Shown here in pieces: positions 28,131-36,160 of a stretch of DNA of 64,000 bases. Each line of letters opens with the position of its first letter. The stretch's first letter is position 1. Made by a program: the position numbers and the translations under genes. Origin of the DNA: Candidatus Bathyarchaeota archaeon (lineage in GTDB: Archaea; Thermoproteota; Bathyarchaeia; Bathyarchaeales; Bathycorpusculaceae); the NCBI GenBank assembly GCA_963777155.1, contig CAVZPM010000011.1:1-64000 (forward strand), given 5' to 3'. The notes below the pieces were generated by a model that was not told where the DNA came from, searched no databases, and was given only the letters and a program-made list of their open reading frames with translations.

Positions 28131-29060
28131 TTATGAGTTCATATTAGCTTGTATTTGCCTTTGAGATTTTGTTTCACTTAAAAAACGTACCTTCAGTCTC
28201 TTTTCAAATATCGTAGCTACCTCAAGTACGGATAGTGCTGCGACGGCGATTATAGGAACTAAATCGTATGAATATATCTGTGAGACGATGTCGCTATTAA
28301 CTTCGATTCGCAAAAAGTCTAGTCCTATGTTGTAGTAAAAGAAAAAGGGCAAGTTTAACGCCGCAAGAAATGCAACTATACCCACACCGAACTTTAGCAG
28401 TTTTTGCCTGTTGTACCATAGAAGCAGAGGAAGCGCAAGAAGAGCAACACGTGGATCAAATGCGCCTATTGCAAATAGCAACGCGGAAAGCCATGGTTTT
28501 TTAGAGAACCCAAAATACAAAGCGCCTACGATAAGAGAAGTCTGAATTATATGGGCGTTTGCTTGAGCATAGCCCCAATAGTAACCTGGTTGGAAAGCAA
28601 CTAAGATGACGAAGGCTACTACAGCGGCTCCTACAAGCTTTTTGTCTTTAACAATTTTGTAGACAAAAAATGCTAGGGCAAAGATAGAAATAAATTGTAG
28701 TATGTCAAAAACGTTAAGCGCATTTTGGTAACTTAAACTCAAAAAAGGTGCAAAAAAAACCAGGAAGGAAGGCGTGTACTTGAAGGTTTGGACGTTTGGG
28801 GGAATGTAGTAATCGCCTGGTTGATTGCCGCCTATGTAGATTGTGGTCGGATTGTTGAATAATCTCCACTCTCCGATGTAGTAAGCAGAAAAATCTCGTG
28901 CATAAATTGATGACATCGGCTTAAATGTTTCTGGATAGGCAAGACTAAAAGTGTAAGCGTTTAGCGCCAATGCTATGGTTATGACTGAAATGAGGATTAA
29001 CTTGTTGGTTTTCGACTGCAATTTCCGTTTTACCCAACATTTGGGTGGAAGAGATTTCAT
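28131..29060 (-). CDS. GT87/DUF2029-like GT-C membrane glycosyltransferase
   Basis: RDFSAYY, FKYTP, QAN motifs; polytopic. Confidence 0.75.
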   Translation of the reverse strand: MKSLPPKCWVKRKLQSKTNKLILISVITIALALNAYTFSLAYPETFKPMSSIYARDFSAYYIGEWRLFNNPTTIYIGGNQPGDYYIPPNVQTFKYTPSFLVFFAPFLSLSYQNALNVFDILQFISIFALAFFVYKIVKDKKLVGAAVVAFVILVAFQPGYYWGYAQANAHIIQTSLIVGALYFGFSKKPWLSALLFAIGAFDPRVALLALPLLLWYNRQKLLKFGVGIVAFLAALNLPFFFYYNIGLDFLRIEVNSDIVSQIYSYDLVPIIAVAALSVLEVATIFEKRLKVRFLSETKSQRQIQANMNS

Positions 29061-29176
29061 TATTTTACCAAAAGTATTGTAACAAGTTATTAGCTTTTCG
29101 TGAACTCAATAATAAGATATTTCCTTATAATTTTGGAAGTGTTGAGCATCCAAAATCATTTCGTCTTCTCATCCCA

Positions 29177-30625
29177 TCACCTTGGGATAACTGCTAGAAA
29201 TGGTTCGGGGCTCATTTCTACGGTTGCGTACACTGCTAGGGCTATGCTCCAGAAGACGTCGTCATGTGTTCCGTTTGGATGTGAGTAGCCTATGGCGCCA
29301 TCCTTCCGCAGGTCATAGCGTTCGACGTTTAGCTCTGTACAGATGTCGCCTCGGTAGGGTCGTTCCCAGTTTAGCAGTGGATAGTAGAATTTGCCGTTGG
29401 TCATGCGCTGCTTTAGTAGGCTTGCCATCTCGCTTTTTCGTGGCACGCTAAAGTTTACGCCTTCAGCGTTGTCGATTCCAGCGGTTGTCATGTCGGCAAT
29501 TATGCTTGGTCCTTCACGAGTGAAATCTACACGAATTTTTTGGAATCCGCCCCAACGATCTTGAAGCGCCTTGAGATAACCAAGGACTTGAGCGTACATC
29601 GTTGGCTGCTTGAAAATCTCGATGTGCCTCAAAAAAAGGCTGTCGTTCAGCCGCTCAATAACTGAAAGCACGCAGTAATCCCTTGTTTGAGCCAGGTCTA
29701 ATCCCGCAAAGAAATCGCCTTCATAGGTGTCTTCAGGATTGTACTCTTGAAGGTCGACGCCGCAATTCTTCTTGGTGCCAATACAGCTAACAATTAGGCT
29801 TTGAGATAGCCAAACGTCTTCATCCTCAGCCCACTCAGCCTCCATCTCCCGACACCAACGTTGTGGATCATTCCCGAACTGACGCTTAATCTTCTCAACC
29901 ATCGCAGGATTCAAAGGACCATCAGGTGCCATGGCATCGCTCCATCGCACATGAGACCGCGCAAAATCATCAAAATCTTTATGGTTAAACATTCTCCAAA
30001 ACAAACTATCGGTATTAAAAGGCGTGGAAGTAGCAATCAGTTTGCCGTTGGTCGTTCCAAGCGTAAATAGAACCGAATCATACAAATCCTCGTCATTTGG
30101 AATAAAATTTGCTTCTTCGATCCAGATTACTTTGAAGGTTGGTCCCCTTATTGTATCGGGGTTGTTTGGAAAAGCCTCAATCACGCTACCATTGGGTAGA
30201 GTTATCCTGGTTTTTTGTATTTGCAATCCTGGTTGCTGAGGAAGCTTTCTAGCGAAACCTCCCATTCGCCTGATGTTTAGTTTTGTTTGGCGAAAACTGG
30301 GTCCAACAATCGCAATATAGCTGTCAGAATGATCCCACGCATATTTCAGAAGCAAAGCTGAAACACAAAAACTCTTGCCCGTTTGACGAGACCAGCGGAC
30401 TGCAGTAAACTGATTCTTATCAAATAAATCTGCCAATTCGAGTTGATACTTAAAGGGAGTAAAACCGAAAATCTCTTCAAAGAACCGTTTAGCATCTCCC
30501 CTTAGGGCGTAAGCTTCAGCGCCCTTTTCTATTTCAATTGCGCATTCATTCTCGAAGAGCCGTGCCCGCTCGGAAAAGAGCCTATTAGGACTTAGGGTTC
30601 TGCGATTTTTTGATGACTTCAGCAT
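29177..30625 (-). CDS. terminase large subunit (Terminase_6 family)
   Basis: YQ adenine motif, RQTGKS Walker A, IRG, WIEEA Walker B, TSTP, RNase H-like GLDLA / RVD / HDD. Confidence 0.9.
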   Translation of the reverse strand: MLKSSKNRRTLSPNRLFSERARLFENECAIEIEKGAEAYALRGDAKRFFEEIFGFTPFKYQLELADLFDKNQFTAVRWSRQTGKSFCVSALLLKYAWDHSDSYIAIVGPSFRQTKLNIRRMGGFARKLPQQPGLQIQKTRITLPNGSVIEAFPNNPDTIRGPTFKVIWIEEANFIPNDEDLYDSVLFTLGTTNGKLIATSTPFNTDSLFWRMFNHKDFDDFARSHVRWSDAMAPDGPLNPAMVEKIKRQFGNDPQRWCREMEAEWAEDEDVWLSQSLIVSCIGTKKNCGVDLQEYNPEDTYEGDFFAGLDLAQTRDYCVLSVIERLNDSLFLRHIEIFKQPTMYAQVLGYLKALQDRWGGFQKIRVDFTREGPSIIADMTTAGIDNAEGVNFSVPRKSEMASLLKQRMTNGKFYYPLLNWERPYRGDICTELNVERYDLRKDGAIGYSHPNGTHDDVFWSIALAVYATVEMSPEPFLAVIPR

Positions 30626-31037
30626 ATTTTCTGTTCGACTCCAAAAGTTGAGCTTCTAAACCGCGATAATCAACGTAGTCTGAGAAAAGCTCCTTGTAGA
30701 TTTTAACGCCAGAAATGATACTTCTTAACCGTAAAACTTCGTTTTGCTCTAAACCAGGAGTCTCTAATGCAGTTAAAGCCGCACTTAACGTCTTTAAAGC
30801 TGTTTCTACGCTTGGAAGCTCTGCAGGTAAGGACAGCTTTAAGTTAAAAGAAGAAGAAGCACCCTGCACGCGACCTTCTTCTTCTTTTAAACCTAAATCA
30901 AGCATCTTCTGGTAAATAGCATTCTTAGAATACTTACCCTCAAAACTGAAAACTAGAGAGTCGAGACTAACGCCCATCTCTACCCAATCCTTAAGCTTCT
31001 TTTCATCTTCAATGTCCCATGGTTTGCCTTTAGTCAT
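30585..31037 (-). CDS. HTH (GcrA/Myb-like) plus helical protein, candidate small terminase partner
   Basis: KPWDIEDEKKLKDW...SKNAIYQKMLDLGL; overlaps the terminase ORF. Confidence 0.65.
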   Translation of the reverse strand: MTKGKPWDIEDEKKLKDWVEMGVSLDSLVFSFEGKYSKNAIYQKMLDLGLKEEEGRVQGASSSFNLKLSLPAELPSVETALKTLSAALTALETPGLEQNEVLRLRSIISGVKIYKELFSDYVDYRGLEAQLLESNRKYAEVIKKSQNPKS

Positions 31038-31130
31038 GTTTTTTGCCCCACAAACAACCCAACGACCCTCCGCTCAGTCTAGTAATTGAAGCGAAAATCT
31101 CGGCATTCCACATATGCAATAAAATAGTCA
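31034..31130 (-). pseudogene. remnant of a small hydrophobic ORF coupled by an ATGA overlap to the HTH gene
   Basis: LLHMWNAEIFASITRLSG, then in a shifted frame VVGLFVGQKT* with the TGA overlapping ATG 31037. Confidence 0.4.
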
Positions 31131-31533
31131 TGGGTACTCTTCGAATCTTTGAAGGATTATCAGATATCATCTTAAGAATACTATAGGGCAAAACAATCGA
31201 AAGACGCTCTAATGCACGCTTGTAGCTTTTGAATTTAGTTTTTGCACCATCTTGGTTATACGTTTCATTCGTTGGCATGAAAATCAATGGCTGAGTGGGG
31301 TAGAAAACTGATATAGCTTATTAGCCCATTTGGGTCAATAACGCTTAAATGGCAATTCAGGCAAAATTTTTACAGCTGTTTTTTGTTGTAACTATTTTGA
31401 ACATTTCTACTGCGTGACCAAAAAGAGGTTGAATAGGTGAACTCGAGCAAATTCTTGGATTTAACAGCAACTTTTTAAGTTTAAAGCCGCTTATTTTTGC
31501 TATCTGCTTGTTATACTTATAGGAGAACAAAAA

Positions 31534-35071: not shown

Positions 35072-36160
35072 CTATTCGATCACTGGTTCAACCAATACCA
35101 GCTTGCCTTTTTCAGTTTGCAGTGTTTGGAGAATTTTTTCGGGGATTTGGATAATTCCTTTGGCGTTAGATTTTGTGTCGTTTATTGCTCTAAACTTGCA
35201 AATGGTCTTTTTGCCATCCGAGGCTTCGATGTTTACCCTTGTGATTTGTTTGCCCTTATAGAGATCGTTCCATCTTGTTATTACTTCACCGTCGATCCGC
35301 ACGGTATCAGTTGGTACAAGTAAACCCATGATTTTTTGAACCAAGAACTGATTTTTGGGCGGCTGTGAATGATTAGGTTCAGAACTTAAAGATACAGGTA
35401 GGTCAGTTTTGGATTCAGGATCAGCTATTTTCCCAGTAGGCACAACTTTTTCCTTGGTCCCTTTACGTTGAGGCGTCGGTTTGTTCATTTGCTCTCGTAT
35501 TATCATGCCATCTCGCATCTCAAACACTTTACTAGTCATACTAGCAATTGATGGGTCATGAGTAACTATAATGACTGTTGCGCCCTCATGGTTGGATAGA
35601 TCTCGGAGTGCGTTTACAACTTCTTTGCCTGTTTTAGAATCTAAGTCGCCTGTAGGCTCATCTGCCAAGACAATGGAGGGCTTGTTTGCGAGTGCTCTGA
35701 CAATTGCTACACGTTGTTGCTCTCCACCGCTCAGTTCATCAGGCCTATGATGAATACGATCTGCTAACCCAACCATTTTCAGTAACTCTTTTGCTCTATT
35801 TTCCCGTTCTTTTGATGTTACACCCGCAATTAACATGGGTAATTCGACGTTTTCAATGGCTGATAAGACAGGAATTAAATTATAAAATTGAAATATGAAT
35901 CCGATAGTTCTTCGCCGGAGCTCCGTTAAGTCTCTTTCTTTCAGCAGGGTTAGGTCTATTCCGTCAACATAGATTTTGCCTTGGGTGGGTTTATCCAAAA
36001 CACCGATTAAATTGAGAAGGGTTGTTTTGCCTGAACCAGAAGGACCCGTAAAAGCGACAAACTCGCCCTTCTGGAGCTCCAAGTTGACTCCTCTTAAAGC
36101 TTGAACTTGGTTTTCTCCAAGTTTGTATGTTTTTTGGACTTCAACGACTTTGACAGACAT
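35072..36160 (-). CDS. LolD/MacB-type ABC ATPase with an extra C-terminal domain
   Basis: GPSGSGKT, LSGGEQQRV, ADEPTG, VTHD, then a linker and a ~90 aa domain. Confidence 0.9.
   Translation of the reverse strand: MSVKVVEVQKTYKLGENQVQALRGVNLELQKGEFVAFTGPSGSGKTTLLNLIGVLDKPTQGKIYVDGIDLTLLKERDLTELRRRTIGFIFQFYNLIPVLSAIENVELPMLIAGVTSKERENRAKELLKMVGLADRIHHRPDELSGGEQQRVAIVRALANKPSIVLADEPTGDLDSKTGKEVVNALRDLSNHEGATVIIVTHDPSIASMTSKVFEMRDGMIIREQMNKPTPQRKGTKEKVVPTGKIADPESKTDLPVSLSSEPNHSQPPKNQFLVQKIMGLLVPTDTVRIDGEVITRWNDLYKGKQITRVNIEASDGKKTICKFRAINDTKSNAKGIIQIPEKILQTLQTEKGKLVLVEPVIE

Follow-up and report, generated by a model that had tools for sequence, protein, structure and literature searches.

A lone terminase gene pair of viral origin in a Bathyarchaeia genome, possibly a capsid-less packaging module

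Bathyarchaeia are abundant, uncultured archaea of sediments and soils, whose gene flow is poorly understood. Here we describe a pair of terminase genes, encoding the large subunit TerL and a TerS-like protein (TerS in the following), that stands alone among host genes in the genome of a Candidatus Bathyarchaeota archaeon (Bathycorpusculaceae). The pair lies in a stretch of 64,000 nucleotides (nt), referred to as the window, which covers positions 1 to 64,000 of contig CAVZPM010000011.1 (contig C11 in the following) of assembly GCA_963777155.1 (G000; 39 contigs, 2.29 Mb, 90.6% complete). The segment from 29108 to 31444 (2,337 bp) is, in all likelihood, a piece of the genome of a head-tail virus of Bathyarchaeia, consisting of complete TerS and TerL genes and of stubs of their two viral neighbors, the hydrophobic gene p80 and a gene for an ABC-ATPase/GNAT protein.

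TerL is encoded on the reverse strand at 29177–30625 and is intact over its 482 residues. It matches Pfam Terminase_6N (PF03237) at E 5.1e-16 (59.4 bits, cut-off 22), Terminase_6C (PF17289) at E 5.6e-4 (20.4 bits, slightly under the cut-off of 22.6) and, over residues 47–467, the PHROG family phrog_2 ‘terminase large subunit’ at E 9.4e-35. It carries the motifs RQTGKS, WIEEA, TSTP, GLD, VD and HDD, which we take to be the Walker A and B motifs, the C-motif and the nuclease acids; RQ[ST]GK[ST], [DE]E and [ST]STP as well as the acidic GLD, xD and (H/Y)DD are kept in all 30 intact family members that were aligned. The family comprises 1,314 proteins at E <= 0.001; of 41 related genomes, 33 have it, among them 21 of the 24 that belong to the same genus. 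JGI labels the relatives ‘phage FluMu gp28-like protein’.

The preceding gene (30585–31037, reverse strand), which overlaps TerL by 41 nt, encodes a 150-residue protein with no match in Pfam, PHROG, NCBIfam or PADLOC. In an AlphaFold2 model (26 sequences; predicted local distance difference test score, pLDDT, 82), a three-helix bundle at residues 9–47 is connected by a disordered linker to the helices 77–91 and 98–146, of which the C-terminal one is long. The N-terminal domain, a helix-turn-helix (HTH), locally matches the DNA-binding domain of GcrA (5yiu; template modelling score 0.80 on the target, 44 columns), with a whole-chain E-value that is not significant, and a Foldseek search of the PDB with the model returned no match at E <= 1e-3 and no solved TerS. 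Homologs are found directly 5' of TerL in nearly all loci examined, both proviral and ‘solo’, by which we mean loci with no structural gene within about 10 kb. Because of this constant place before TerL and of its helical architecture, we call the protein TerS-like.

The TerS gene is in turn coupled to orf85 (31030–31287, reverse strand, 85 residues), whose stop codon overlaps the TerS start in an ATGA, as in the viruses described below; the last 28 codons of orf85 (31033–31122) are the stub of p80. Beyond the other end of the pair, at 29108–29172 on the reverse strand, lies what we read by eye as the decayed stub of the ABC-ATPase/GNAT gene. Its first eight codons can still be recognized (MRRRNDFG versus MRRQRDFR, in a comparison with G014a, L018, L038, L039 and L046), and a stop follows after 15 codons. 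The segment at 31239–31350 (reverse strand), upstream of the pair, is not viral. It includes a TATA-like GCTATATCA, presumably of a promoter, that was likewise found by eye and is common to two further solo copies at other sites (L022, where the segment is 76% identical, and L019, over 40 nt). The members of a solo-only clade of the TerL tree carry a TATA-like TTTATAAG 30–40 nt 5' of TerS (also by eye), whereas the viral copies are coupled to p80 instead. A preliminary description of the window, made from the letters of the DNA, had already named the intact TerL with its motifs, the overlapping 150-residue protein with its GcrA-like N-terminus, the ATGA coupling to the remnant of a hydrophobic gene, and the GT87, lhr and methyltransferase genes nearby; all of these readings held.

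The viral origin of the pair emerges from its relatives. We compared 20-kb neighborhoods of 43 TerL-bearing loci from 15 genomes by clustering and tblastn; these genomes are metagenome-assembled genomes (MAGs), and some of the TerL copies lie at contig ends. Six loci (G014a, L018, L023, L028, L038 and L039) share a block of the order MCP (major capsid protein) - p411 - p149 - p462 - p339 - tail tube - p154 - neck - p182 - tail protein - p137 - p80 - TerS - TerL - ABC-ATPase/GNAT, in which the MCP matches PF05065 and phrog_267, the tail tube PF18906 and the neck phrog_5, while the tail protein is YQBQ-like. Ten viral contigs in IMG/VR show the same order. The last protein of the block is a soluble ABC-ATPase fused to a GNAT-like domain (L017:11474–12913, 479 residues; phrog_293, phrog_886), with homologs directly 3' of TerL, and the homology between the proviruses stops at its stop codon. 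The nearest TerLs, at 82% identity, are two proviral copies in G014, with which the window TerL groups in the tree. Given these proviral relatives and the stubs of both viral neighbors, the segment is by origin a fragment of a virus or provirus rather than an ancient cellular gene. The preliminary description had found it unusual that no portal gene follows TerL; in this virus family, however, the terminase genes stand after the tail module, with no portal gene after them in the proviruses or the IMG/VR contigs, so that this detail alone is not abnormal.

Some reservations apply to the proviruses themselves. A portal and an integrase were not found in G014a with Pfam or PHROGs, which is why its designation as a ‘complete provirus’ is an inference, and its attachment sites show no convincing direct repeat, the longest one having 16 nt and lying within genes. 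The cluster of ABC-ATPase/GNAT proteins was also considered as a mark of the integration target. This idea was dropped, since it was the ABC domain that brought the member in the window (35072–36160, 362 residues), a regular ABC transporter ATPase, into the cluster.

Head-tail viruses of Bathyarchaeia have been described before: the accessible text of one study reports a 46.8-kb provirus in a complete Bathy-6 MAG (PMC11697101), and that of another introduces the ‘Fuxiviridae’ and ‘Kunpengviridae’ (PMC10848311). The window locus shares the host class with these viruses, and its closest TerL relatives lie in proviruses with an MCP-tail-terminase order and in IMG/VR contigs, but it retains only 2.3 kb. 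Unlike a provirus, it has no capsid, portal or tail genes and spans just 2,337 bp between two host genes.

Nor is the rest of the virus elsewhere in the assembly. The preliminary description had noted the absence of a virus from the window, and this can be extended to the whole of G000: in tblastn searches with the provirus proteins, only TerS, TerL and the p80 stub were recovered, the 28-residue p80 stub being the sole trace of the 12 structural proteins, and no Phage_capsid, Phage_portal or Phage_integrase profile matched, while control genomes were positive. For PF00589, there was nothing at E <= 0.001 in G000, versus matches in 14 of 14 control genomes; this search covered no other recombinase families. 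G000 has three Terminase_6N matches, all of this family: the window copy on C11, one on C12 (64% identical) and one on C27 (69%). A C-terminal piece of TerL at the end of contig C9 (C9:166486–167159) overlaps the start of C27 (C27:1–674) at 96.7%. The two pieces are probably the same locus, present as two strain variants; alternatively, two tandem copies may have disrupted the assembly here. In addition, an orphan TerL C-terminal fragment of 64 residues (C31:39501–39635) has a VapBC-like pair on one side and an aminoacyl-tRNA synthetase gene on the other.

How the fragment came to its present place can be seen from the same site in related genomes. Directly after the Lhr-like gene, G004 and G022 have orf108, a methyltransferase gene and a CxxCxxCC gene. 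G001 and G012 have a GT87 gene between Lhr and orf108 and no terminase insert, and thus represent the empty site, while in G000, TerL, TerS and orf85 are found between GT87 and orf108. Alignment of the intergenic DNA sets the bounds of the insert to 29108 and 31444. The octamer GTGAACTC stands at both junctions, at 29100–29107 beside GT87 and at 31437–31444 beside orf108, and occurs once in each of the empty sites (L072 in G001 and L074 in G012), homology to which stops exactly at the first copy. The octamer occurs three times in the window versus 1.4 expected, and what gives it weight is that it coincides with the homology breakpoints on both sides. At the corresponding distance from the TerL stop, the viral ABC/GNAT gene has AAGTTCAC, so that the insert could simply have arisen when a small piece of viral DNA, circular or linear, recombined at a microhomology. 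As no second clean empty site is available, the 8-bp repeat rests on this one locus: in none of 31 genomes do the two flanks of L022, a sister solo copy, adjoin each other, and a comparison of L020 with contig C1 of G000 was discarded because the region is replaced rather than cleanly empty.

The arrangement is not confined to one assembly, as both junctions are bridged by short contigs in a search of four DNA sequencing runs, the side of the TerL stop and GT87 in X2 records 11 and 12 and the side of orf85 and orf108 in X2 record 14 and X3 records 20 and 21; one of these runs may be the source of the window itself. Among the short contigs of the four runs, which give partial coverage, no alternative junction was seen.

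The neighborhood has some peculiarities of its own. The GT87 gene (28131–29060; Pfam 4.6e-9) is an accessory insertion between the genes for the Lhr-like helicase and orf108, present in G000, G001 and G012 and absent from G004 and G022. PADLOC matched none of TerL, TerS, orf85, GT87 and orf108. In the two closest relatives, a shortened form of the module, made up of TerS and no more than the first ~135 codons of TerL, is found elsewhere in the vicinity of Lhr, ~3 kb upstream of this gene (L070, G023:C5, 13381–14100; L071, G010:C19, 6606–7382).

The window copy is one of many. Among the 43 loci, 6 are proviral, 5 are partial, with some structural gene or the ABC/GNAT gene, and 32 are solo, of which only the window copy and L036 keep the p80 stub; in this count, the C9 and C27 pieces of G000 (OWN_C9, OWN_C27) are entered separately, and one 30-residue match to p149 in L025 is taken as spurious. 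A wider, independent draw was made from GTDB species genomes, taking the best 80 of 162 relatives, 57 of which had at least 6 kb of upstream sequence. These 57 loci include 17 proviral, 13 partial and 27 solo ones, with an uninterrupted TerL in 22 of the latter, in a draw that favors relatives of the viral clade of the window copy and under-samples the solo copies of the other clade. The genomes G000–G024 hold ~30 full-length, stop-free TerLs versus 13 such MCP matches. Furthermore, the MCP, present in 14 of 31 genomes of the genus, was not found in G000, G010, G011 and G022, all of which have solo pairs.

In the TerL tree, a clade of 13 that includes the window copy mixes proviral and solo members, while a separate clade of 14, to which C12 belongs, is solo only; IMG/VR holds no contig more than 68% identical to the C12 TerL. 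The descent of the solo copies does not simply follow that of their hosts. In one solo subclade, the synonymous divergence (dS) of TerL is ~1.0–1.3 whatever species are compared, while that of the host gene Lhr ranges from 0.40 to saturation for the same species; this independence from host divergence suggests that vertical descent has been supplemented by some horizontal spread.

To what extent these genes are maintained was evaluated through the ratio of nonsynonymous to synonymous divergence (dN/dS), calculated throughout with the method of Nei and Gojobori (NG86), with many pairs saturated at synonymous sites. Solo pairs have a dN/dS of 0.07–0.27 for TerL and 0.12–0.33 for TerS, members of the solo-only clade 0.055–0.188 for TerL (median 0.093; 30 of 78 pairs with finite dS), and viral pairs 0.036–0.098 for TerL. 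The most telling cases are solo copies at syntenic loci, because their divergence arose in the solo state. For L030 (G002) and L035 (G011), dN/dS is 0.09 for TerL, at a dS of 0.086, and 0.17 for TerS, with flanking genes at a dS of 0.10–0.28. For L020 (G014), L042 (G022) and L047 (G023), which all have UbiD-family and aconitase-X (AcnX) genes upstream, the TerL dN/dS of 0.06–0.07 compares with 0.06–0.08 in the flanks, and the dN of 0.12–0.15 with 0.09–0.13. The window itself provides an internal control. Viral p80s are 85–93% identical to the reference and their TerLs 74–86%; in the window, the TerL has 81% and the p80 stub only 64% identity, and the ABC/GNAT stub is barely recognizable. Thus, the stubs have drifted, while the 1.9-kb pair between them is intact. 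G015 has a provirus with five frameshifted structural genes beside three intact solo pairs. Judged from these comparisons, the pair is probably retained by purifying selection, as part of a genus-wide population of solo pairs that number several per genome and persist at syntenic loci.

TerS is far more diverged than TerL, with 30–52% identity, and between proviruses, both TerS (42%) and TerL are more diverged than the adjoining structural genes. Some proviruses with the same MCP-to-tail module (G014:C1:1705643–1706110 and 2499175–2499642; L076; L077) have a different, distant Terminase_6N gene upstream of the MCP, in open reading frames of 447–449 codons, and no TerS-TerL of this family after their tail genes. 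The pair therefore behaves as an exchangeable cassette. In L078 (G015:C2, 14440–14640), the decaying provirus of G015 mentioned above, p80 is joined via an ATGA straight to the start of ABC/GNAT, with TerS-TerL missing from start codon to start codon.

The solo copies also differ in what follows them. Homology between them ends within ~10 nt of the TerL stop, beyond which the DNA is variable and carries toxin-antitoxin-like pairs, a TIR-domain protein, PQQ-propeller surface proteins and glycosyltransferases. Isolated TerL fragments are strongly biased, with at least 18 C-terminal-only versus 3–4 N-terminal-only cases. Five loci have C-terminal fragments 0.6–6.6 kb downstream of a full TerL, on the same strand and with small cassettes in between; the TerL fragments of L024 (G023:C1, 5398–6514), L025, L027, L040 and L042 bracket toxin-antitoxin-like or surface-protein cassettes. 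In L024, the first fragment matches the 3' end of the orthologous gene in L040 at 92% identity, over a length that takes in 128 nt of the flank, while the 3' part of the resident gene reaches only 72%. It follows that a new 3' end was inserted with its cargo and that the old end was displaced, a pattern that would fit recombination via the conserved end of TerL.

A further trait of the 3' side concerns tRNAs. Pieces that resemble, by eye, the T-arm, the acceptor 3' strand and the CCA of a tRNA lie on the opposite strand 30–60 nt past the TerL stop in L030, L035, L042, L043 and L047, and may be remnants of old attachment sites. The initial idea that tRNA genes abut solo TerLs was abandoned, as ARAGORN and Rfam find no tRNA gene there.

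What could preserve a terminase without a capsid? We tentatively favor the reading that the solo pairs, of viral origin and retained by selection, are capsid-less, helper-dependent packaging modules, comparable to satellites. The TerS-TerL pair would be active only when a related virus provides procapsids. TerS might then bind a site at or near its own locus, where TerL would cut the DNA and pump it into the heads of the helper, moving rightwards across the TerL gene and then the variable cargo beyond it. The module and the neighboring cassettes could thereby spread, in the manner of a satellite or by lateral transduction, at the cost of the helper, and a resident TerL gene in the recipient would provide the homology for recombination. 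Such a module would account for the selection on both genes, the many copies with diverged TerS, the horizontal spread, the variable cargo on the packaging side, the recombination mediated by TerL, and the independence from resident capsid genes. The preliminary description had proposed a domesticated or independently mobile unit. By origin, the insert is a viral fragment, but the low dN/dS, the excess of solo pairs over capsid genes and the decay of the stubs next to an intact pair favor a unit that is retained or spreads independently.

Several observations weigh against this reading. G000 contains no helper virus, having no capsid, portal or MCP homolog, and neither a pac site nor an integrase or a replication gene could be identified. 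The insert has no terminal inverted repeats, and its outermost 70–130 nt match no other locus in the set compared, so that movement as a defined element is not demonstrated. About one fifth of the solo copies are broken; for instance, TerS is split in the C27 copy, and a stop interrupts TerL in the ortholog of this copy in G011. The TerL genes of L024 and L040 are mosaic, and recombination could refresh dead copies. As the window copy belongs to the viral clade, its low dN/dS could partly reflect an earlier viral phase, and NG86 is unreliable at saturated dS, which was finite in only 30 of the 78 solo-clade pairs. Finally, the search of sequencing runs turned up no RNA run containing the stretch.

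Much of this would also be expected if the pair were an inert provirus remnant, a functionless piece from the right-hand end of a virus genome that was either spared by a deletion or captured and is intact only through its youth or through overwriting by viral copies. We consider this on balance unlikely, although it stays a substantial explanation, above all for the window copy. The closest homologs are proviral, both viral neighbors left stubs, partial intermediates exist (5 of 43 and 13 of 57 loci), some solo copies are broken, the L024/L040 case documents mosaic replacement, and the search for RNA runs was negative. What a remnant explains poorly is that the dN/dS of syntenic solo copies equals that of the flanking host genes across deep species splits, that IMG/VR offers nothing above 68% identity to the 14 members of the solo-only clade, that intact TerLs outnumber intact MCPs by ~30 to 13, that the stubs decayed while the 1.9-kb gene pair is still open, and that the breakpoints lie close to the pair on both sides. 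The preliminary description had reasoned that proviral closest homologs together with relaxed selection on solo copies would indicate a simple remnant. The former were found, in the two G014 proviruses with their 82% identical TerLs; solo dN/dS values, however, are near the viral ones and, at syntenic loci, near those of the host flanks.

Alternatively, the pair might serve the host: a domesticated terminase could compete for or mis-cut the DNA of related viruses, or fill their heads with host DNA, and so lower their yield (superinfection exclusion or abortive packaging). Purifying selection at syntenic chromosomal loci, several diverged TerS specificities in each genome, TIR-domain and toxin-antitoxin-like neighbors and the commonness of related viruses in the genus (MCP in 14 of 31 genomes) all agree with such a defense. 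On the other hand, neither TerL nor TerS matches PADLOC, the star-like dS of one solo subclade, independent of host divergence, looks horizontal and not like that of a host gene, and copies are often gained, lost and broken. Defense thus appears quite unlikely to us, with the qualification that it overlaps with the satellite reading and is inseparable from it in silico.

A self-mobile element, in which TerS as the recognition subunit and TerL as an RNase H-like nuclease and ATPase cut and move the pair, perhaps with adjacent cassettes, is harder still to uphold. The clean 2.3-kb insertion between 8-bp direct repeats, the different sites of related solo copies, the exact lack of TerS-TerL in L078 from start codon to start codon and the lack of a tyrosine recombinase family match in this genome would suit it. 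Of the traits of a transposon or insertion sequence, a target-site duplication and conserved, mostly inverted ends, the locus shows an 8-bp direct repeat at both junctions, but no terminal inverted repeats, and its termini are not common to other copies. Moreover, the breakpoints in the window lie inside the neighboring genes and not at the ends of the pair, and the AAGTTCAC at the matching position of the viral ABC/GNAT gene fits recombination by chance microhomology. We regard this explanation as improbable. A dispersed gene transfer agent (GTA) with head and tail genes elsewhere in the genome, as raised in the preliminary description, is barely conceivable, for although the accessible text of PMC5026251 attests to multi-locus GTA ‘genomes’ and the terminase pair is conserved, this 90.6%-complete assembly has no capsid or portal family match and no homolog of the 12 structural proteins beyond the 28-residue p80 stub, and the MCP was not found in four genomes with solo pairs (G000, G010, G011 and G022).

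With these alternatives weighed, the helper-dependent packaging module can be compared with known systems. The pair resembles the terminases of Caudoviricetes (Terminase_6 or ‘Mu gp28-like’) in the motifs of its ATPase N-domain and putative RNase H-like C-domain and in the small overlapping HTH/coiled-coil partner upstream, but differs in having no portal, capsid or tail gene in cis or in the assembly, and in a TerS-like protein that matches no solved TerS. It shares with packaging-gene phage satellites the chromosomal location, the incomplete set of virion genes, the retained terminase and the potential to redirect helper packaging. According to the accessible text of one study (PMC10690885), Staphylococcus aureus pathogenicity islands and phage-inducible chromosomal islands (SaPI/PICI) carry TerS only, and capsid-forming PICIs (cf-PICIs) and Streptomyces satellites carry TerS, TerL and capsid genes. 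The window unit, by contrast, is limited to its two genes and lacks an integrase, a regulator, replication genes and a capsid gene, and its dependence on a helper is our supposition. The phage-inducible chromosomal minimalist islands (PICMI) also belong to the phage satellites with packaging genes. As for archaea, the accessible text of a recent preprint (10.1101/2025.02.15.638363) names pSSVi and pSSVx as the only satellites before 2025, both associated with spindle-shaped and not with tailed viruses. A literature search in which subscription journals were outside the coverage found no paper on lone terminase pairs in archaea.

Other parallels are found outside the satellites. Bobay et al. 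(2014) reportedly described domesticated defective prophages under purifying selection, and Chen et al. (2018) are said to have described lateral transduction by in-situ packaging. The solo pairs resemble the former as virus-derived chromosomal genes with a low dN/dS, and the latter in that packaging from a chromosomal terminase/pac locus would move adjacent host DNA; they differ from both in that the terminase pair is specifically and repeatedly kept, in many copies per genome and with no other prophage genes. GTAs of the RcGTA type likewise retain a terminase in a cellular genome but, as far as the accessible text of PMC5026251 goes, keep their head and tail genes, none of which were found here.

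A bolder version of the packaging-module reading, which is doubtful in our own estimate, would make the solo pairs a new minimal class of archaeal virus satellite. They would be two-gene ‘packaging launch pads’ with no integrase that pirate the procapsids of related tailed viruses to transduce themselves and the hypervariable cassettes downstream, with TerL as a portable stretch of homology for the recombination of arriving cassettes, which would explain the tandem 3' fragments, and they would be a main driver of island turnover in Bathyarchaeia. If chromosomal DNA is indeed packaged in borrowed capsids, no smaller satellite-like elements would be known than these pairs, which would also be the first tied to tailed archaeal viruses and would offer a concrete and testable mechanism by which the adjoining islands turn over so rapidly. 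Even as a defense or as slowly decaying relics, the repeated survival of the same two genes would constitute a clean natural experiment on which virus genes are worth keeping to cells or selfish elements.

Two minor observations concern the wider distribution of these sequences. A MAG labelled Methanocella (L110) has a partial TerL that is 80–86% identical to the family, together with four structural-gene matches, and probably represents either a mis-binned contig or a cross-class virus. Lastly, a stretch of ~170 nt at L022:8707–8884 has many copies of 78–88% identity in several genomes of the genus, some of them a few kb from MCP fragments, and may be a small gene or a dispersed repeat.

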